Of a stretch of DNA of 64,000 nt, positions 5,351 through 25,263 are shown piece by piece. The notes beneath the pieces were generated by a model. The model searched no databases. It saw nothing but the letters and a program-made list of their open reading frames with translations, and was not told the origin of the DNA. Origin of the DNA: a virus. Lineage: Duplodnaviria; Caudoviricetes. The stretch lies in IMG/VR virus record IMGVR_UViG_3300031992_000072, positions 1-64,000 of that record; one strand, given 5' to 3'. A program made the translations under genes and the position numbers. Positions within the stretch are counted from its first letter, which is position 1. The number at the start of each line of letters is the position of its first letter.

Positions 5351-6577
5351 CCTTACTACCGTCGGTTTCCCGATATTTATTAGCGGAGTAGACCATGTCA
5401 TCACCCTGTTTTACAGGGGCACAGCGCTTCCAAACGCCGGATTTCACGGCGAATGTACTTCCTTTCGGAATGGTCGTTACACCTTCTCTGATTAGTCAGA
5501 GCTTGGCACGAAGTCTGCATATATTTCAGAAAGTATTTGATTAAGTTTCTCTTTGATGTCATCTTTATATGTAATTTCATATAAATGTATATAATTGTTT
5601 TTGCAATATTCTTTCTTCAAAGGATCGGTAATTTCTCTTTGGTAATCACCAAAATGATCAGGCTGCGGAATATAATGTTGTATTCCTTGATATTCTATAA
5701 GTTTCATATTTCCATTATTGTCCCACAAAGCAAAATCGAAAAATACCGGATATCCTAAAGGAGAAAGCAAATCTGGAAACGAAAATGAAGACTTAAAAGG
5801 TATGTCATACTGCTTAAGCAGTTTACCAATTTCATATTCACCTTTTGAATTTAAACATCCACAGCTTATTTGTCCTCTTCGAAGAGCACTTGCAAATACA
5901 TTAAATTCACTTCCGCATTCCAAACATATACATTTATATTTTCCATAAGATGAAGTCTTATTATATTTAACAGACATAAGTTTCTCAACAACGTAAATTG
6001 AATTAATTGTTTTTCCAGTTAAGTCATATTTCATTCGTTGTTTTTCGAAGCGTTTACATCCACAACTTAAAACTGTTCCTTTTTTCAATTCTCTTGCATC
6101 AACAGTAATTGTTTTTCCGCATATGCATTGGCACAACCATCTTGTTATTTTACGTCCTGATATACCAATACGACTTTCTGCTCTTTCCTTAACTGTAAGA
6201 TATCCAAACTTTTGACCTGTTAAATCTTCGTATTTTCTGTTCTTGTAAAATTCTTCTTTAAGATGACCACAAGACTTGGTAGTAGATAAATTTGATTCGA
6301 TTACATCAGTTTCTTTTCCGCATGAGCATATACAATGCCATTTAGAGCGGACTCTACCTGTTGGAGTTTTATATGAAAACTTATTTTGCAGCAACAATTC
6401 TCCAACAATATCACCTGGTTTGTATTTCATTAAACTTATCACCACCTTCCTATGTAAAATATTACTTTCTGAAATACTTAGCTTTTCTTCGTTAGCCGCA
6501 TTTATGCGACACCCGACATATATCGGTTCACTGTGTTTTTCGACACACATTACTGTGTGAAGGTTCTATCTTTGTTA
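5351..6577 (-). mobile_element. group I intron in dnaE (1227 nt)
   Basis: exon 1 ends in U (TTT), intron begins with an in-frame TAA and ends in G; P1 GUUU/GAAC with U.G; core-like GTAACGACCATT and GACATGGTCTACTCC; splicing restores the frame and the conserved motif. Confidence 0.85.
5492..6430 (-). CDS. intron-encoded homing endonuclease: three DLTG..FG.LTV..W.C.C.CG..SCGC repeats plus C-terminal PD-(D/E)XK/Vsr-like (EDxHD-type) domain
   Basis: repeats and FDF...IEYQGIQHY motif; lies inside the intron; start trimmed to MKYKPG. Confidence 0.8.
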   Translation of the reverse strand: MKYKPGDIVGELLLQNKFSYKTPTGRVRSKWHCICSCGKETDVIESNLSTTKSCGHLKEEFYKNRKYEDLTGQKFGYLTVKERAESRIGISGRKITRWLCQCICGKTITVDARELKKGTVLSCGCKRFEKQRMKYDLTGKTINSIYVVEKLMSVKYNKTSSYGKYKCICLECGSEFNVFASALRRGQISCGCLNSKGEYEIGKLLKQYDIPFKSSFSFPDLLSPLGYPVFFDFALWDNNGNMKLIEYQGIQHYIPQPDHFGDYQREITDPLKKEYCKNNYIHLYEITYKDDIKEKLNQILSEIYADFVPSSD

Positions 6578-16062: not shown

Positions 16063-16626
16063 TTATTTAAAACATGGTTTAACAACAGGCCATTGTTCAG
16101 TATCAACATTTTCTTTCGTTAAATTATCTTTTATACTATGTATTTTCTTTTGTTGTTGTAACAGCCGTTTATATCCACGTTTTTTTCTTGGTACGTCAAG
16201 CAATTTCATGTCAGGCACTTTTTTGACATAATATACAGATCCAGTTGGATCGCCGTACTGATTTGTTTCAAACCAGCACAGCGCACCACTGGGATAATAA
16301 TGAACACCATGCATTTTATCCTGCGTTCTATAATCAGAAAGATAGTCAAGCATATCGTTATGCCCATATATGGAAGTTACCAACACTTTTGACAGATTGA
16401 ACTTTGGAGTTCCGTCAAACTGTTTTACAACACGATAGCCAGATCTTTTATTGGATGTTGTGTTAGCATAGCATAAAACATACGAAGGCCAGAACGAACC
16501 ATTTTTTATGTCTCTGTCGAGGACAATAGCAAGCGAGTAGTACGTGCTTCTATAATCGCTTTCTGTTCTAGTCGTTTGGCTCGCTGTGTTGCCTTCTTCT
16601 GCACCAGTCTGTATGTTATTTGGCAA
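16063..16626 (-). CDS. hypothetical protein
   Basis: 187-aa ORF overlapping the RNAP 3' end; start uncertain. Confidence 0.55.
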   Translation of the reverse strand: MPNNIQTGAEEGNTASQTTRTESDYRSTYYSLAIVLDRDIKNGSFWPSYVLCYANTTSNKRSGYRVVKQFDGTPKFNLSKVLVTSIYGHNDMLDYLSDYRTQDKMHGVHYYPSGALCWFETNQYGDPTGSVYYVKKVPDMKLLDVPRKKRGYKRLLQQQKKIHSIKDNLTKENVDTEQWPVVKPCFK

Positions 16627-19328
16627 TCTTCACATCTGCACTGGTTAGATGCTTTACGCTCACACATTATTCCGCAGTCAATGCATTCATAGAAACCTTT
16701 GGTGTTCTTTACACACTGATGATTCTTTACCCAGCTTGGAATTTTTGTATTACAATCCAAGCAAGTGTCGCAATCTTTTAAGTTTGCTTTGATGTTTGAC
16801 AGAGCAATTTCTCCGAAAACACGCCAGAACATTTGCTTATGGGCAGGTTTATTCATTCCTTCGCCTGCAAACAAATGTTTTACAATATATGGATATGCAT
16901 TTTCCAACGAACCAAATTTTTCTGTTATTCTGTCTGTTATATCTTCGGCAACTATTTCATATCCATTTATCAGTTTTCTTTCATCTGTATAAGCATTGTC
17001 TCTTGCCTCAATGATGCTTGCTTTATTTGAATTGTCCATCTCACAGAATAATTCCGGAATTTCAGGACGTGAATTCACACAAGGTGCTGACAAAAGCATC
17101 TGCCAGTTAAATCGAGGCAAACCAGAATAATTTAAATTGATATTTCCAATATCATCAAATGCTTTACAGATACGATTCATTGTAGAATTATTTGGATCTG
17201 CATATTTCTTCTTGCGGTTGTGCGGAGTATCTTTACGCCCGTTCTTGCTGAATGCAAAGAACGTTGGCATACGACCATTCTTTCCGCCGCAGGCTCTGCC
17301 AATACGTTTTGCAATTTGTGGAAAGTCTTTATATTCATGGACGACACCAGTCTTTGCTCCGTCTATACGCAGATTGTTTAAATACGTAAGAAGAGCCGCT
17401 GCCACTCTATCCGGGTTGTCTTTATTCCAGACACGAGTAAGCATATTGGATATTTCGCCAATGTTTGAATAATCATGTGACCTTTTCAGTCCTCTGAAAA
17501 GAGAGTCAAAACTGATTGGTTCCGCATTAGCTACTTCAGCATCGTAAAACAACGGTACAACATCAAAAGCTTTGATATTTCTTTCTGCTATATCAACAAA
17601 CAAAGGATCAACTATAACATTTAGCTGATCCCCGTCGACATCGAACTGCAGAATTCTTGATATCATGCTTTTACAACTTGTATGGATAGCGTTTGTGTAA
17701 AACCAATCATAAACATTTTGATCGTGTGATATTTTCTGTACAGAGTGCTCAAAATAAAGATGCGGAGATCTTAGAACATCAGCTTTATCATGTCTCCTGA
17801 AGATCTTACATGCGACTTCATCTTTTGCCAGCAAACCTTTCGGTTCTTTGATGCCAAGGAACCAATATTCACAAGCCGCATAAAAGTCAGGCAATACAAA
17901 AAGTCTTTTGTTTTCACACTTTATTTTGCCGGACTTTGCATCAAGAAGCATTCTTTTACGAATATCTCTTAAAGTTTCTTTTGTATAAGCTTCACGTAAA
18001 AGCTCTGGATAATATGCCAGCGCAGCCTTGTACGGTTGTTCAGAATTCTTTTCTGCTTTCAACGTTTTAAGCATCGTATCAGGATCTTTTGTAATACCTT
18101 CAATCCTTGAGTGCTCCTCAGCTGTAAACTGTTTTATTTCATCGTCTGTCATTATTTGAAGCGTCTGTATCTGCTGATAATTTGTGTATGTGTCTTTTAT
18201 ATAGTCTTCTTCATAGTTTGTTCTGCTGAAATGACAGTTATTTTCTTTGTAAAATTTCTTATATTCATCCCAGTCTTTATAAAGCTTATATAGTTTAAAC
18301 ATAGATGTTGTTAAGATAACATTGATTCTTTCTTTTATAAGATCATGTTTTACACCCCATGCATCTTCTATAATCGGATCAACGTTATTAACCTTGCACC
18401 ATTTTATATAATCCCAGCTGCCCAGTAATCCTTTAATCCAGTCACCTCGTACCATAAAGTTGGATTTTGAAACTTCAGGAAGCATCATTCCGCATCCGTC
18501 TGTATGATCAATCTCAACAGTGCGTACTCCAACTTCATATGAATAATCAGGCTTTATATACATCATTCTGTCTGTTACAGGAGCTTTAAATTCTTTGATA
18601 ACGATACAACGATCTATATCAAAGTCTGTCCACTCTTCTGTGGCTGACGCAGCCAGTGCAAGATATGCCATATATTTTGAAACGTTCAGACTTCCTCTTG
18701 AATTAATTAAGTCCCAGTCCATTCCGCATTCAAGACGTGCATGAACTTTATCCCACATTTCATCCGAGATGAATACAACCTTATCTCTTCTGAGTTGTCC
18801 TGCGCTGGCTGAGAAAAACCTGTAATGTTTATTCACAACCTTATCGCCATTCAACACAGAAAGATAAAATCCGTTTAAAACAAACTGTCTTAATATTTCA
18901 AGATTTTTCCATTTAATCACAATCAAGTCAAGCGTCTTATCAAGATGCTTCAACCCCATTGATCGTGATAATTCACAACAAAATTCTGCAATCTTCTTTC
19001 CTGTTTTCAGATTATCATATGTAACGCCTTCAGGAAACGGATAATCTGCATCTTTAGGATAATAGATTACGGATTTCAGTCTGACAAATCGTGGTTCATT
19101 TTCATGTTCGTGAATTAACTTTTCAAGGGTTTGCTTTATTTCATTTTTTCTTTGAATGACATTTTCCCGTTCTTCTCCTCCTTTAATGTTTTGAGCGTCC
19201 ATTTCGTCTAGCTTGTTCTTTTCTGCGATTATCTGCATATATAAGTCATATTCTTCGTCAGTGAACAAGTCATAGCTGGATAGGGATACCAACCTTATCT
19301 GCTCTTGCAGATATGTTTTTACAGACAA
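16506..19328 (-). CDS. YonO-like single-subunit two-barrel (RdRP-like) DNA-dependent RNA polymerase
   Basis: HTDGCGM, RGDWIKGLL, LRSPHL, QFDVDGD catalytic motif; TTG start after AAAGGAGG; similar to SPbeta YonO from memory. Confidence 0.85.
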   Translation of the reverse strand: MSVKTYLQEQIRLVSLSSYDLFTDEEYDLYMQIIAEKNKLDEMDAQNIKGGEERENVIQRKNEIKQTLEKLIHEHENEPRFVRLKSVIYYPKDADYPFPEGVTYDNLKTGKKIAEFCCELSRSMGLKHLDKTLDLIVIKWKNLEILRQFVLNGFYLSVLNGDKVVNKHYRFFSASAGQLRRDKVVFISDEMWDKVHARLECGMDWDLINSRGSLNVSKYMAYLALAASATEEWTDFDIDRCIVIKEFKAPVTDRMMYIKPDYSYEVGVRTVEIDHTDGCGMMLPEVSKSNFMVRGDWIKGLLGSWDYIKWCKVNNVDPIIEDAWGVKHDLIKERINVILTTSMFKLYKLYKDWDEYKKFYKENNCHFSRTNYEEDYIKDTYTNYQQIQTLQIMTDDEIKQFTAEEHSRIEGITKDPDTMLKTLKAEKNSEQPYKAALAYYPELLREAYTKETLRDIRKRMLLDAKSGKIKCENKRLFVLPDFYAACEYWFLGIKEPKGLLAKDEVACKIFRRHDKADVLRSPHLYFEHSVQKISHDQNVYDWFYTNAIHTSCKSMISRILQFDVDGDQLNVIVDPLFVDIAERNIKAFDVVPLFYDAEVANAEPISFDSLFRGLKRSHDYSNIGEISNMLTRVWNKDNPDRVAAALLTYLNNLRIDGAKTGVVHEYKDFPQIAKRIGRACGGKNGRMPTFFAFSKNGRKDTPHNRKKKYADPNNSTMNRICKAFDDIGNINLNYSGLPRFNWQMLLSAPCVNSRPEIPELFCEMDNSNKASIIEARDNAYTDERKLINGYEIVAEDITDRITEKFGSLENAYPYIVKHLFAGEGMNKPAHKQMFWRVFGEIALSNIKANLKDCDTCLDCNTKIPSWVKNHQCVKNTKGFYECIDCGIMCERKASNQCRCEDCQITYRLVQKKATQRAKRLEQKAIIEARTTRLLLSSTET

Positions 19329-19665
19329 ACAGACCAGTCCTCCTTTTATGAATTTATATGATAAATCCCTTACGGGAATTGAATTTAAAAGCCGTGCGTT
19401 ATGGGCGTTTCGCACGGCACGTAGCCATTCTCCCATGCCCTATGGCTTGCACCCATCAGGTTCGCCTGTCCCTGAACTATGACGAGAAACGAGAATACAC
19501 CAAACGGGTTCGAACTTGAGAGGGTGTGCTGACAAAATCCTATTGCTCGCTCGTTTCTTTTTGTTGGAAAGGAGGTGTCACTCACAACACGTTTAACGTC
19601 ACCACACTATAAATGACGGGAGCTTTTCCAGTCAGAGCAATAAGTATTTGCCTCTCAGAAATTAG

Positions 19666-20097: not shown

Positions 20098-20131
20098 AAA
20101 AAAGGAGCGAGTAAAAATACCCGCTCCTTTG
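20097..20131 (-). terminator. intrinsic terminator after RT
   Basis: AAAGGAGCGGGTATTTTTACTCGCTCCTTTTTTT on minus strand. Confidence 0.75.
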
Positions 20132-20163
20132 CATAACAAACTAAATATGAAATATTACACAAG

Positions 20164-20231
20164 AAAAGAATGACAATACCCTGGAAACCTGAAAATTTAT
20201 TTTCAGGTTTCCTGGGTTTTGTCTTTCTTTT
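20164..20231. repeat. ~32-bp imperfect hairpin downstream of RT
   Basis: aaaagaatgacaataccctggaaacctgaaaa-ttta-ttttcaggtttcctgggttttgtctttctttt. Confidence 0.85.
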
Positions 20232-20294
20232 ATTGAATGACATACCTTTGTGTGTCATCACATAACATGTAATGAGTCTCTCGACATTTCTTTG

Positions 20295-21446
20295 TTATGC
20301 TATAGTTCCATTCAGGTATTTCTTAAACATGCTGCCAACATTTACAGACCATTTTTTATTGTATTGATCAATTATCTTTTTGAAATACTCAGGTTCTATC
20401 ATGCTGTAATAAGATAGTTGTCCTCTGAGATGCGTTACATCTCCTATATCCCAAAAGTTCTTGTTCTTTGTATCAAGGATGAAAGAACAAAGAGCTGCTT
20501 TGAAATAGTTCTTTTTCTTTACCGAAACTGTAATGTCATTATCCTTATTCAGCAACAATCCAAGACACCAGTTTGCTGATTTCCCAGCCTTTTTTCCGAA
20601 GTGCGTCTTTTCGTTTTTGATTTTAAAAGGCGCTCCAAACTCTTTTAATGTATCTTCAATTAGTTTAACAATTTCTTCATAAGGAAAGCATTTTTCTGCG
20701 GATATATGAATATCATCTGCATATCTGGTGTATATAATTTTCCTATCGGCAAGCATATTAAACAGCTTATGATCGATAGGAATCATCATAATATTTGTGA
20801 GCGTTGGCGAAAGCACTGTACCCTGTGGCAGTCCGCCGTTCAGGAAACCAAGCGATAAAGCTTTTTCTAGTTCGTTTCGTCCTTCTTCAGATTTGCAGAT
20901 TTCTGAAAGAGGAAAGATAATCGAACACATTTTCATAACAAATTCCAGCGTTGTACTCGGAAAGAATCCGCTAAAATCTGTTTTCAAAAACCAGTTACTA
21001 TTATTCCTTTGGTGTTTTTTAACACAATCTACGATACATCTGTCTTCAATATATGCAAAAGCAGATGTATGATACAGAACACCACAGTCATTTTTCAGAA
21101 AACTACTCAGTACTCTTAGTGCGTTCTGTAGTTCGTCGCATGGTGCGTCTATTTGTCTGAAGCCGCCAGTAGTCTTTGGAATTTTAAAGCTGTTATATAA
21201 ACTTTTTCTGTCTTTTTCAAACAAATTACTGTTTAATAAATTAAACTTTCTCAACCAGTTAATCATTCCATTAACATCTATTTTATTTAGAAATGCTTCC
21301 GGAATTTCTTCAAACTTCTTTGTAATAGTAGCACTTGAATAGCTTTTTTCATTTGTAAGTTCGTTTAGAACTATTTTTTCGTTAAATACATCTTCCCAAG
21401 TTAACTGATGAGGTTTGCGATTTTGTTTTACTGTTAAATATATCAT
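20295..21446 (-). CDS. retron-type reverse transcriptase
   Basis: Y.SFKIPKTTGGFRQIDAP, AFAY...IVDCVKKH, KTDFSGFFPS, GLPQGTVLSPTLTN, YTRYADD, CLGL in place of VTGL, C-terminal LRGQLSY. Confidence 0.85.
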   Translation of the reverse strand: MIYLTVKQNRKPHQLTWEDVFNEKIVLNELTNEKSYSSATITKKFEEIPEAFLNKIDVNGMINWLRKFNLLNSNLFEKDRKSLYNSFKIPKTTGGFRQIDAPCDELQNALRVLSSFLKNDCGVLYHTSAFAYIEDRCIVDCVKKHQRNNSNWFLKTDFSGFFPSTTLEFVMKMCSIIFPLSEICKSEEGRNELEKALSLGFLNGGLPQGTVLSPTLTNIMMIPIDHKLFNMLADRKIIYTRYADDIHISAEKCFPYEEIVKLIEDTLKEFGAPFKIKNEKTHFGKKAGKSANWCLGLLLNKDNDITVSVKKKNYFKAALCSFILDTKNKNFWDIGDVTHLRGQLSYYSMIEPEYFKKIIDQYNKKWSVNVGSMFKKYLNGTIA

Positions 21447-21449
21447 TTC

Positions 21450-21730
21450 TTTTGCCTCGCACTTAAACTAAATTACTAGAACCAGTCATCTCGCTGCCTC
21501 CTCGAGTCGCCGCGCTTGATTCTTTTCCGTCGCTTCTTCCCGATTTCGGGGTCTTTGTTTAGGTTTCTGACTTGTGATTTGTCCATGTTTTCATTTTCTA
21601 GCCCTTTCGACATCCTACTGGGCACCGTATCCGGACCACCTCGTGCTTCCAGGAAGGCGTTTTTACCGGGCAAAGTGATACAATTCATTACATGAATTGT
21701 TCAACGAGTGAACGTTGATTTTCTTTAAGT
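21450..21730 (-). ncRNA. candidate RT-associated ncRNA (msr/msd-like leader)
   Basis: 280-nt gap between E1 gene and RT with hairpins TCAACG..CGTTGA and ACAATTCA..TGAATTGT and a long purine-rich stretch; the 70-aa ORF here may be spurious. Confidence 0.4.
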
Positions 21731-21731
21731 G

Positions 21732-22403
21732 TTACAAGACAAGTGTTTCGAAATTAAACGGATTCAGTATCATTGCTCTTTCAAGTTTCTCTTCTTTAAC
21801 AAAATTAACAAAATTTATCACACCAGCCATTGCGACGCTCCACACAGTCGGCATTACGCAAAGTGATACTTTACATGCGCTGACAGGAACATTCTTTTCA
21901 GCTTCTGCGTGAGTAAAATCCATTGTTTCAAGTAACGCTTGAATATCAGAAGTTTTAGTCCAGTCAGCAGCATAATGCTGCGCGGAAACCAAAGCAGTCC
22001 TGAAATCGAACATCGCCTTAATATTCAGGTTATACTTATTCTCTTCGACAATGCGCTTCCTAAGCTCAATATTGTCAACACAAAGAAAAACATAACCATT
22101 CAGCTTATTTCCATCCCAGCCGTCTCCGTATAATTTAATTGTCTTCGCTGCTTCCGGATTAATCTCAACCCAACGGTCATATACACCTTCAAGTTTTGGT
22201 TTATAAAGATTTTTCGTAGTAAACATCTGATTAGCCAGATTATGTTCTTCAACAACGTCAAAGTCATACAAACTGACATTTTTCAAGCCAAATCTGGCAA
22301 GCAGCTCAGCCACCGTAGAACCGACTGAGCCGCAGCCAATGATATGAATTCTGTCTGTACACTTTTCAGGGTTAAAGAACTCAGCACTTTTTGCTAAATT
22401 CAC
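21732..22403 (-). CDS. ThiF/E1-like ubiquitin-activating enzyme
   Basis: IHIIGCGSVGS, YDFDVVEEHNLANQ, FLCVDN, DFR; retains PVSAC but lacks the CxxC Zn pairs. Confidence 0.9.
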   Translation of the reverse strand: MNLAKSAEFFNPEKCTDRIHIIGCGSVGSTVAELLARFGLKNVSLYDFDVVEEHNLANQMFTTKNLYKPKLEGVYDRWVEINPEAAKTIKLYGDGWDGNKLNGYVFLCVDNIELRKRIVEENKYNLNIKAMFDFRTALVSAQHYAADWTKTSDIQALLETMDFTHAEAEKNVPVSACKVSLCVMPTVWSVAMAGVINFVNFVKEEKLERAMILNPFNFETLVL

Positions 22404-23173
22404 CAGTCATACCCTCCGTAATACGTTCCGTCCCAATAGTCATTGAGATAGACTGTTTCGTTTTTTTCGTTTTTTTTACTCTTTTTCTGAACCGGATAAT
22501 AATTCTGATAAGGATAAGTTTTCTTTTCCAGCACCAGTTCTTTTGTAGAAGCGATAAAACCAGAAACTGTGTCGTCTTCGTCTTCAATATCAATCACTAC
22601 ATCGTTTTTATCATAGAACATATTATTATCCAGATCATAAAGATAAGTATTAATATCTCCGCTCTTATTCCAAATCTGGAAAATATAGAAACCAGACTTA
22701 CCCATACTTCTGACAACATCTGCCTGGTTTTGAAGGTCTACTCCTGATGCTGCTGTAGACATCTTTACATGAGAATGCGCCTGAAAATGCATATGTTCAG
22801 CTTCATCATCTGTAAGAGAATTGAAGAACTCAAGAGTATCATTATCTTCAGTGTCAACCTTACTGCCATTTACATACTGCTTACAGATTTTTACATCATA
22901 TACATAATAGAGCGTATCAGACAGTTTCTTGACAAGCCCATACCAGGCGACCTCAGTGTCATAATAATTGACCAAGGCTTCCATACGAACATATGCCTTC
23001 TGAGAATAAACGATAGTAATCTTTTCTTTTGCTTTCATTGAAAAGTCTGTAGAAAATGTGAACTTTGTATCATTCATATTTTCCTTAAACTTTTCCCATT
23101 CTTTTCTAAAGTTTGCAAAGAATGATTCAAGCATTTTATTTTCAACTTCTTCTGTTATTTTAATCGGCTTCAT
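22400..23173 (-). CDS. JAB/MPN-like metallopeptidase (deubiquitinase-like)
   Basis: EVAWYG..., Q.V....VD, HSHVKMSTAASGVD (HxH-x9/10-D motif). Confidence 0.8.
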   Translation of the reverse strand: MKPIKITEEVENKMLESFFANFRKEWEKFKENMNDTKFTFSTDFSMKAKEKITIVYSQKAYVRMEALVNYYDTEVAWYGLVKKLSDTLYYVYDVKICKQYVNGSKVDTEDNDTLEFFNSLTDDEAEHMHFQAHSHVKMSTAASGVDLQNQADVVRSMGKSGFYIFQIWNKSGDINTYLYDLDNNMFYDKNDVVIDIEDEDDTVSGFIASTKELVLEKKTYPYQNYYPVQKKSKKNEKNETVYLNDYWDGTYYGGYDW

Positions 23174-24630
23174 TCTTCTTTCTCCTTGTCAACCAAATAA
23201 ATCAACGCTTCTTCAGGAGTCATATCTACCCCATCTTTACGGCGAAGAACTTTCTCACGGCTGGTCAGAAGCCAACCAAGAAACGGTCTGAAGTTCTGTT
23301 CAGTTTCTTCAAGATTAACAGAACCTGCGGAAGCACAGCAATATTCAACCGCAACAATATAATTACGATTCAACATTGCATCAATAATCCTGTCGCCAAA
23401 CTGACCGAAACAGGAATAATTCTTAAAATGAGGATTCGGAATATATTCTTTCAATTCCGGATCAGCAACTACATAATCATACGTTCTTGTTGACGTACAA
23501 TTGCAACTATCAAAGTCAAGCGTATAATTACTGCAAATTTTAATCGCAAATTCAGGGCTTTCACAGAAAATGCTGTTCAACAAAATCTTCCTGTTTTCAC
23601 GGTCTTTGAATGCATCGAGCAGGTTATTCTGCATATACTTGCCGTCAAAGATATGTCCTGCTTTTGCAAAGCTTTCCCATGCATCCTCATTATAATTATT
23701 CAGCAAAGTACCAACCGCAAATGTAAGCTTGCTTCCCTGGATCTTCAGATTAAACAGTTGCTTATTTGTGCTGAGATATTCAACAAATTCATCTTCAAGA
23801 TCATTCACATTTTCAGTTGCTTTCAGTCCTTCATAAAGAACAATAAGTTCCTTCAGATGCTTAATTGCGTTTGTATATTCAGTCTTTGTCGATTCTACAT
23901 ACCGCCTCTGATCTGATACATCCCTGAAAGCATGATTGACTTTACCTTCATGCATTGCCTTCAGAAGTGTACCAAGCATCATGCGTCTGAAGTCCATTGT
24001 ATAAGGAGCTACCGCATTCTTGATGCTCTGAACAAACGCAAGCTTATCATTCTTTGCGAGCGTTGTAATGATCGAATAATCTTTCTGTTCAAGAGGCTTA
24101 TACTTAAACAGATTCGGCATCATAAGACTAAGGAACGAAATAAGAAGATGATAATATTTTATATCCTTGGATCTGATAAAGATTGCCGCAATATTCTTTT
24201 CTTTATGCCGAGCAGCAATACAATCCACATCAGCTTTTTCTTTCAGAAAAGCACCAATCTTTTCAATAATAACATAATCATGAAGCGCCAAATCAGACTT
24301 AACATTATCATAATTATGCGTATATGTATAATAGCAAAACATCGGAACGTCTGTAAGAGATTCTTCTCTATCAAACAGATTCAATACTGCTGAACTTTCT
24401 TCTGGATACGAACAATAAACACCACTAATACCTTTATAAGGATTGATTCTTTCTTTCAGAAGAGCAATCCCAAGACATGTCAACGAGTAATCAGGCTCGT
24501 TTTCCAGCCTGGAAATAGTGTCAATATACTCCTGTGGAATAGGATCGATAGGATTCTGAATATATTCTCTGAACATTTCTTTTGTTTCTCCGTTTCTTTT
24601 ATTAAAATTAGGGGAGCTGATATATTTCAA
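23170..24630 (-). CDS. large protein with coiled coil and putative C-terminal prokaryotic E2-like domain
   Basis: C-terminal PNPHFKNYSCFG resembles the PH/N...C-x-G signature of prokaryotic E2 families; operon context between Ubl and JAB. Confidence 0.5.
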   Translation of the reverse strand: MKYISSPNFNKRNGETKEMFREYIQNPIDPIPQEYIDTISRLENEPDYSLTCLGIALLKERINPYKGISGVYCSYPEESSAVLNLFDREESLTDVPMFCYYTYTHNYDNVKSDLALHDYVIIEKIGAFLKEKADVDCIAARHKEKNIAAIFIRSKDIKYYHLLISFLSLMMPNLFKYKPLEQKDYSIITTLAKNDKLAFVQSIKNAVAPYTMDFRRMMLGTLLKAMHEGKVNHAFRDVSDQRRYVESTKTEYTNAIKHLKELIVLYEGLKATENVNDLEDEFVEYLSTNKQLFNLKIQGSKLTFAVGTLLNNYNEDAWESFAKAGHIFDGKYMQNNLLDAFKDRENRKILLNSIFCESPEFAIKICSNYTLDFDSCNCTSTRTYDYVVADPELKEYIPNPHFKNYSCFGQFGDRIIDAMLNRNYIVAVEYCCASAGSVNLEETEQNFRPFLGWLLTSREKVLRRKDGVDMTPEEALIYLVDKEKEE

Positions 24631-24654: not shown

Positions 24655-25263
24655 TTATTTAGCAATAATCAGCTTATCAATCTCCGCTTCCTTTTCCGTG
24701 ATTTCCTTCAGCAGATCAGGAATTTCCTTTTCAATTTGATTCAGGTCAAGCAGTGCAGAACCCATAATGTCCTTCACCGCAGCCAGCTTATCATCGACAT
24801 CCTCGTCGAGCAGGACGGTCACAGTGGCCTTGCCGCCGTCATTGGTATAGGTGCCGAAGCAGACACCATATTCATTGATAGAGCCACTGCCACTGCAGGT
24901 CTTCACCTTAAACAGAGCGTCACCGTCTTCATCAACGATCTTCAGCGCTTCGGGAGCATACTTTTCTACACGCTCCCAGTCTTCCCGAGCCACATCAGAT
25001 ACAACAACAGCAGAAGCACCGGAAATTTCAACATGAGCAGCATTGTCGATCTTCACGATGGAAGACAGACGGCACTCCTTGTCGACGCCCCACTCACGCA
25101 GAGTCTTGTCCATTCCGGCAGGGTCAATACGAGTACCATCGATACAGTTGGTGGCTACAGAATAGTCCACGTCGAAAGCATCGAAGATCTCACGGATAGT
25201 GGTTCCTTCATCAAACAGGTCACTCTTGCGTCCAGCGGCAGTGGTAACATAAACTTTAATCAT
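24655..25263 (-). CDS. ubiquitin-like (beta-grasp) protein fused to a C-terminal domain
   Basis: N-terminal ~75 aa MIKVYV...TTIREIFDAFDVDY...IDG...MDKTLREWGV...LSSIVKIDNA fits a Ub-like pattern; strong RBS, GC-rich codons. Confidence 0.65.
   Translation of the reverse strand: MIKVYVTTAAGRKSDLFDEGTTIREIFDAFDVDYSVATNCIDGTRIDPAGMDKTLREWGVDKECRLSSIVKIDNAAHVEISGASAVVVSDVAREDWERVEKYAPEALKIVDEDGDALFKVKTCSGSGSINEYGVCFGTYTNDGGKATVTVLLDEDVDDKLAAVKDIMGSALLDLNQIEKEIPDLLKEITEKEAEIDKLIIAK

Follow-up and report, generated by a model that had tools for sequence, protein, structure and literature searches.

Retrons are known from bacteria as anti-phage systems with one template RNA and a toxic effector. The locus described here shares with bacterial retrons a retron-clade reverse transcriptase (RT) with a YADD motif, for which the nearest models are II-A (the St85/Sen2 family) and I-A (Ec78, Ec83), as well as non-coding RNA (ncRNA) on the RT strand, the closing arms a1 and a2, a G after a1, msr stem-loops, accessory genes in the operon and a long msd hairpin, the last in ncRNA-2 only. 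It differs from them by being carried on a large phage, by having two ncRNAs (up to five in relatives) with copies 3′ of the RT, by one msd type that is long and unstructured, by hypervariable msd cores, by an N-terminal extension of about 75 amino acids on the RT, and by accessory genes for ubiquitin-like (Ubl), E2-like, JAB and E1 proteins rather than for a known toxic effector. The same four activities as are predicted here make up Bil (BilABCD: Ubl, E2, JAB deubiquitinase and E1), and models of the CBASS Cap2 type match the Rossmann segment of the E1 encoded here. Unlike in Bil and CBASS, the Ubl ends in Asp-Asn-Ala and not in Gly, the E2-like protein is 486 amino acids long with a large extra N-terminal part, and the module is encoded by a phage and linked to a retron. 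DRT2, DRT9 and the diversity-generating retroelements (DGRs) likewise have an RT next to a structured RNA, and a template of skewed composition, but here the RT is of another clade and there is no conserved ORF, repeat junction logic, adenine-specific variation or target repeat. A full-text search of the literature found no paper on a retron joined to E1, JAB or Ubl genes or on retrons with several ncRNAs; one survey lists viral retron-like RT clusters only (PMC13681634).

The window, i.e., the whole stretch of 64,000 nucleotides that was analysed, belongs to an 80.4-kb virus genome that is estimated to be about 69% complete and comes from an uncultured gut phage. The phage also carries tRNA genes, a primase-helicase gene and a gene for a 976-aa RdRP-like polymerase. 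The phage database held no near DNA match to it, the best RT relative there being 37% identical, and the primase-helicase as query returned no close named phage. All features of the unit lie on the minus strand, in the order g1 to g4, ncRNA-1, RT, ncRNA-2 and terminator. The stop codon of the E1-like gene g4 is at 21732, and the 285-nt gap to the RT start holds no minus-strand terminator, as the preliminary description had stated for a gap of about 280 nt. Between 19600 and 25600 only two were found on that strand, at 24640-24611 and at 20130-20101. The latter (a 13-bp stem followed by a T run) is an intrinsic terminator that closes the unit. The former is an 11-bp GC-rich hairpin with a T-rich tail at the g1/g2 junction, which may be an intra-operon attenuator. 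Judged from sequence, it is probable that the unit is a phage-borne retron with two template RNAs, to which the Ubl kit is the likely accessory or effector partner.

The RT gene (20295-21446) encodes 383 amino acids with YADD at residues 242-245. Its best 25 matches in PADLOC are retron RT models without exception (top RT_II-A, 2e-49), and its best NCBIfam model is retron_St85_RT (NF038233; 3.7e-53), with a score of 180.7 bits against a curated cut-off of 235, so that it is related to the St85 family without being a member. A PDB profile search with six family members retrieved as best matches the RTs of Ec83 (7e-30) and Ec78 (4e-27), covering residues 76-380; the N-terminal extension of about 75 amino acids lies outside the retron matches and is conserved within the family. 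The Drt2 model of NCBIfam reaches 3.5e-12 (46 bits against a cut-off of 390), and Drt3a is likewise far below the retron model. By these comparisons the RT is a retron-clade enzyme, which bears out the retron-type assignment first made from the YADD motif and the retron-like regions X and Y.

A candidate ncRNA had been proposed upstream of the RT, and the gap indeed has the layout of a retron msr-msd (ncRNA-1, 21731-21460). Arm a1 (CACTTAAA, 21731-21724) begins one base past the E1 stop codon and is directly followed by a conserved G (21723), by the hairpins SL1 (21718-21701) and SL2 (21699-21681; CAATTCAT-GTA-ATGAATTG), which are the two hairpins that had been noticed in the gap, by a U-poor template core (21595-21482), by UUUAG (21472-21468) and by arm a2 (TTTAAGTG, 21467-21460). 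The layout was read from the gaps of 15 relatives with RT identities of 52-73%, where a1 follows the E1 stop and is succeeded by the G, two hairpins, a GC-rich part, an A-rich stretch, UUUAG and a2, the 3′ closing arm lying about 13 nt before the RT start. The a1/a2 arms covary in 11 close relatives, at four of which (L010-L013) they were read by eye, and an unbiased helix search that required neither the G nor the UAG recovered these pairs and their flanking signatures at most loci. Examples among relatives are ACGTAAA/TTTACGT, GCGTAAT/ATTACGC, TCACAAT/ATTGTGA, TGCATAAA/TTTATGCA, ATCATATAAA/TTTATATGAT and CATGCAAT/ATTGCATG. SL2 is a local stem that covaries in relatives as well. ncRNA-1 shows homology to the covariance model R1 of the family (see below), which detects it in the window with a register shift (E 0.003) and matches those of L001, L017 and L019 in register. 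A promoter reading of the conserved TGTATCACTTTG box was dropped after a1/a2 and SL2 had been worked out.

The strongly U-poor, purine-rich stretch pointed out beforehand comprises the 114 nt between CTAGAA (21601-21596) and TTCTAG (21481-21476), with 8.8% U, 70% purine and 42% A. It is the most U-poor 114-nt window on the minus strand of the 80-kb genome, and all 17 windows at or below 8.8% U fall at the ncRNA-1 locus. The cores of relatives are A-rich with 11-29% U, so strong U-poverty is not general. A 6-9 bp helix can be found between CUAGAA/UUCUAG-like regions in any relative; the bracketing repeats can therefore not be demonstrated as a conserved stem, and CUAGAA/UUCUAG was set aside as a closing stem. 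The template folds no better than shuffled sequences, either as RNA (z +1.1) or as DNA (z +0.26), and the msd of ncRNA-1 is long and unstructured, without the long msd hairpin of classic retrons.

The core is also the part of ncRNA-1 that varies most. In 15 pairs of near-identical phages the msr and the 3′ ends differ by 0-3.8% and the four-fold sites of the RT by 0-13.7%, while core differences span 1.5-37%, with 10% or more in 14 pairs of the 15, and include indels of lengths not divisible by three; the four-fold sites of E1 vary unevenly between the same phages, so that the neutral baseline for this comparison is blurred by recombination. Core hypervariability was seen in the upstream ncRNAs of L030, L033, L035, L036, L039 and L040 (at about 5640-5975). 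Over 26 near-identical pairs the differences were 0.7% for the msr, 1.6% for the 3′ end and 9.2% for the core, and the substitutions in these pairs show transitions about 2.2 times as frequent as transversions and no adenine bias. A stretch of this composition might be taken for a rolling-circle template of the DRT2 kind, specifying a stop-free ORF, or for the template repeat of a DGR, given that one sense frame of the 114-nt core is without a stop codon and that A makes up 42% of it. We consider both readings extremely improbable and rejected them. The RT is of the retron clade (Drt2 3.5e-12, retron model 3.7e-53), stop codons occur in the cores of relatives and the indels between close relatives do not keep a frame. 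The substitutions are of an ordinary kind, with the transition excess and lack of adenine bias given above, and no variable-repeat partner was found in the 80 kb of a genome that is about 69% complete, the best non-self match agreeing at 39 of 88 non-A positions.

A hairpin of about 32 bp had been described directly after the RT and before the terminator. It is present, and it lies within a second putative msr-msd (ncRNA-2, 20300-20131), recognised from the complementarity of its arms and from its layout in relatives. Arm a1′ (GCATAACAAA, 20300-20291) overlaps the RT stop codon and is followed by a conserved G (20290), the small hairpin SL1′ (20285-20276), SL2′ (20275-20255), the long msd hairpin (20235-20160), UUUAG (20145-20141) and a2′ (TTTGTTATGC, 20140-20131), which is complementary to a1′ at 10 of 10 positions and abuts the terminator. 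The msd hairpin (arms 20160-20196 and 20199-20235, 89% complementary; 32-40 bp) is the longest inverted repeat in the window, with an RNA fold z of -8.7 to -10, and its predicted DNA copy has a folding energy of -30.7 kcal/mol (z -10.9). The ncRNA-2 layout is present at every one of the 14 close-clade loci whose sequence extends to the RT stop, with stems that differ in sequence and covary; folding of 13 of these downstream elements gave z of -5.5 to -10 and hairpins of 16-40 bp for each. In the 80-kb genome only ncRNA-1 and ncRNA-2 combine an 8/8 a1/a2 match with GAAA after a1 and TTTAG before a2, and no homology to the msd was found elsewhere in the genome. The apex stems of the hairpins of L008, L009, L010, L014 and L017 share CCTGAAGG/CCTTCAGG, and the window has CCTGAAAAT/ATTTTCAGG there; the apex common to the five relatives is either shared ancestry or a recognition site. 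The idea of an anti-restriction decoy, suggested by the CCTGAAGG apex, was rejected as CTGAAG is not avoided in the genome (119 occurrences seen, 31 expected).

It might be argued that the downstream element is a 3′-end stabiliser or a terminator-associated structure of the RT mRNA, in a retron with one ncRNA, as the element abuts the terminator and long hairpins at 3′ ends can protect transcripts. This is very unlikely. The element repeats the whole layout of ncRNA-1 (a1′, G, AAAU, SL1, SL2 with a GU-rich loop, UUUAG, a2′), it does so with covarying stems in 14 of 14 close relatives that reach the RT stop, and in distant relatives the RT is followed by one to four further ncRNA copies of full length. 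The preliminary description had offered, besides an msd located 3′ of the RT, an msd split around the RT ORF, and had mentioned a weak 10-nt complement flanking the gene that could be chance. The complement exists and is exact (21694-21685 with 20275-20266), and taken alone it is at chance level (blastn E = 16). In one relative (L002) one compensatory change is present at the same two sites, which would favour one ncRNA split around the RT ORF and closed by this complement. On the other hand each 10-mer, CATGTAATGA in ncRNA-1 and TCATTACATG in ncRNA-2, is the apex of an 8-bp local hairpin (SL2 and its paralogue SL2′) that covaries inside its own copy, and in each flank another closing stem, bearing the G and UAG signatures, has better support. 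An a1/a2 pair flanking the RT was therefore rejected, since each flank is closed by its own a1/a2, and we see practically no chance for a split ncRNA. The downstream hairpin sits in a complete ncRNA with its own a1′/a2′, G and msr hairpins; the proposal of an msd 3′ of the RT thus stands and that of a split one falls.

Such ncRNAs are also found in the wider family. Those of distant relatives (RT identity 41-50%), about 250-350 nt long, begin with a1 (nnnnUGUAAU) and the G and continue with two hairpins, GUAAC and a variable core to UGUAG and a2. The covariance model R1 covers the 5′ 106 positions of the ncRNA only, and a2 was not used for finding copies. With it 142 copies were detected in 70 sources, every one of them on the strand of the RT; a locus has one to five, and most of them flank the RT gene. 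In the model-fitted alignment, pairing of the two msr helices reaches 96.6%, compared with 62.6% for shuffled and 36-46% for slid controls, and compensatory changes were observed at 12 of 12 msr helix pairs. A G stands immediately 3′ of a1 in 131 of 132 aligned copies and is, by analogy, the candidate branching G (21723 and 20290 in the window). For the 9 nt that precede this invariant G, a perfect complement lies 200-361 nt further downstream in 74 of 121 distinct copies, and one matching at least 8 of 9 positions in 104 of 121, as compared with 2 of 605 and 66 of 605, respectively, for unrelated-partner controls. There are 60 different a1 words, and NAG precedes a2 in 89 of 104 cases. At 46 of 107 loci an a1-G...TAG-a2 pair ends no more than 60 nt from the RT start, and at 36 of 105 one starts no more than 40 nt from the RT stop, where the chance expectation for pairs so positioned is about 0.02 per locus. 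The covariance analysis of both flanks that had been called for thus shows covarying a1/a2 arms and msr helices on either side of the RT. Rfam holds no matching family, only tRNAs reaching its threshold, and sub-threshold matches on the hairpin were dismissed as miRNA-like noise. Two relatives (L003 and L027) have five R1 matches each on the RT strand, some of them several kb from the RT. By the sequence-level criteria applied here the element classes as a retron, the long msd hairpin being present in ncRNA-2 and absent from ncRNA-1.

The four genes upstream of ncRNA-1 encode the predicted Ubl kit. None of g1, g2 and g3 matches a PADLOC, Pfam or NCBIfam model, which sets them apart from Bil and from CBASS Cap2/Cap3. 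The product of g1 (24655-25263) consists of a Ubl domain (residues 1-76, ending in KIDNA) and a C-terminal domain of about 125 amino acids, as judged from an AF2 model (pLDDT 91.5) and structure searches, which give residues 1-72 a ubiquitin-like fold. The best 50 matches listed in a wide VIA-align search are all ubiquitin-like or other beta-grasp folds over residues ~1-77 (Z 7.9-9.6), and among the matches listed is the bacterial Bil Ubl 8tyz_B, which superposes on the domain with a Z of 8.8. In distant relatives the C-domain has a gene of its own, the Ubl and C-domain genes stand in opposite orders in different clades, and a free Ubl of 75-84 amino acids ending in ...DNA followed by a stop is encoded at more than 40 loci (e.g., L004:1662-1886, L030:1284-1508 and L022:1400-1642). 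This free form would fit cleavage of the fusion in the window after Asp-Asn-Ala. The 486-aa product of g2 (23170-24630) is tentatively regarded as E2-like, with a C-terminal E2/RWD-like domain, from an invariant motif in the alignment (H401...C407.G409) and from weak matches of residues 276-438 to RWD domains (Z 6.5-7.2) in an AF2 model of pLDDT 90. It has no sequence-family match, the PDB sequence profile and Foldseek found nothing for it, and a protein atlas offered nothing usable on either g2 or the C-domain of g1. Gene g3 (22400-23173) encodes a predicted JAB/MPN+ metallopeptidase with the complete JAMM motif (invariant E74 and H133-S-H135-x7-S143-xx-D146), for which Rpn11 was the best match in a PDB profile search (E 0.011). 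Similarly, g4 (21732-22403) encodes a predicted E1/ThiF-type adenylating enzyme of 223 amino acids (Pfam ThiF 2.4e-18; PDB profile best UBA5, UBA1 and MoeB, with E down to 1e-15), and no gene of the module is better conserved (47-88% identity). Some relatives have additional genes within the module, i.e., one of 269 aa between E1 and the ncRNA (L030:4828-5637) and one of 186 aa between JAB and E1 (L004:4478-5038).

In related phages the RT unit stands last in the Ubl operon, on well over a hundred contigs. A tblastn search with the window proteins against 122 RT loci detected E1 in 109, JAB in 105, g2 in 97 and g1 in 89, and most of the RT loci without Ubl-kit genes are cut short upstream. Among the 109 RT loci with enough upstream flank about 105 keep the Ubl cassette; the true exceptions, with a full upstream flank and no cassette, are L084, L095 and L102, and in L101 E1 is downstream of the RT. 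Viewed from E1, the RT is present 128-1238 nt away in 73 of the 74 viral loci with 2.5 kb of downstream sequence, the one locus without RT being L195. Linkage of the RT and the Ubl kit is near-obligate in both directions, the reverse of the rare association that would have spoken against a partnership. No conventional effector lies beside the RT, in line with the earlier remark that none of a typical kind is adjacent, and the Ubl machinery, put forward at the same time as the possible partner of the retron, proves to be its constant neighbour. Because RT and kit are almost never apart, the kit is most likely in the accessory or effector position.

Shared operon and expression timing could be all that connects the two, in which case a real retron would work independently of the Ubl kit. 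Phage families generally keep their gene order, the close clade has the RdRP-like gene after the RT as well, extra genes are inserted between E1 and RT or between JAB and E1 in some relatives, and a few loci have one part alone (L084, L095 and L102; L195). Against this, the two-way linkage persists down to 41% RT identity while flanking genes change, ncRNA-1 has its a1 one base beyond the E1 stop, and there is no other candidate effector beside the RT. We give functional independence a minor, although not negligible, chance.

For a retron partnered by the Ubl kit, what we infer on co-transcription, cDNA synthesis, product sizes and functional coupling is as follows. One transcript would cover the Ubl, E2-like, JAB and E1 genes, ncRNA-1, the RT gene and ncRNA-2 and end at the terminator (20130-20101). 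On the model of retrons already studied, the RT would bind each ncRNA at its two msr stem-loops, the a1/a2 stem would set the conserved G (21723 or 20290) beside the template end at UUUAG, and the RT would prime from the 2′-OH of this G and then copy the msd. From ncRNA-1 one would expect roughly 130-190 nt of unstructured, pyrimidine-rich DNA, and from ncRNA-2 a hairpin DNA of about 90-100 nt. The Ubl kit would act as accessory or effector, with RT-msDNA particles either controlling the kit or being used by it. It is tempting to speculate, at the risk of probably being wrong, that the reverse-transcribed DNAs are parts of the Ubl machinery (scaffold, specificity determinant or tagging substrate) and that the several hypervariable msd cores of each phage form an exchangeable, fast-evolving specificity array in an arms race. 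In a weaker version of this speculation, the hypervariability would arise by recombination of msDNA into the template from which it was copied.

As read here, the retron would be on the phage side, with several template RNAs of two shapes, and tied to a Ubl kit instead of a toxin. Should the coupling be functional, reverse-transcribed DNA would be linked to protein tagging, a link for which we found no example in any known system, and the locus would offer a tractable entry to a Ubl pathway with a tag ending in Asp-Asn-Ala. The apparent use of both long unstructured and hairpin templates by one RT may interest those who employ retrons for making DNA in cells.

The 976-aa protein encoded beyond the unit (16506-19436, minus strand) matches PF05183, a eukaryotic-type RdRP family (7e-14), and phrog_8308, and is probably a single-subunit phage RNA polymerase of the type of YonO. 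The RT also occurs on 42 contigs (L082-L123) that had been assigned to MAGs of bacteria or archaea from many phyla, one contig being 359 kb long, and most of these are probably mis-binned phage contigs.
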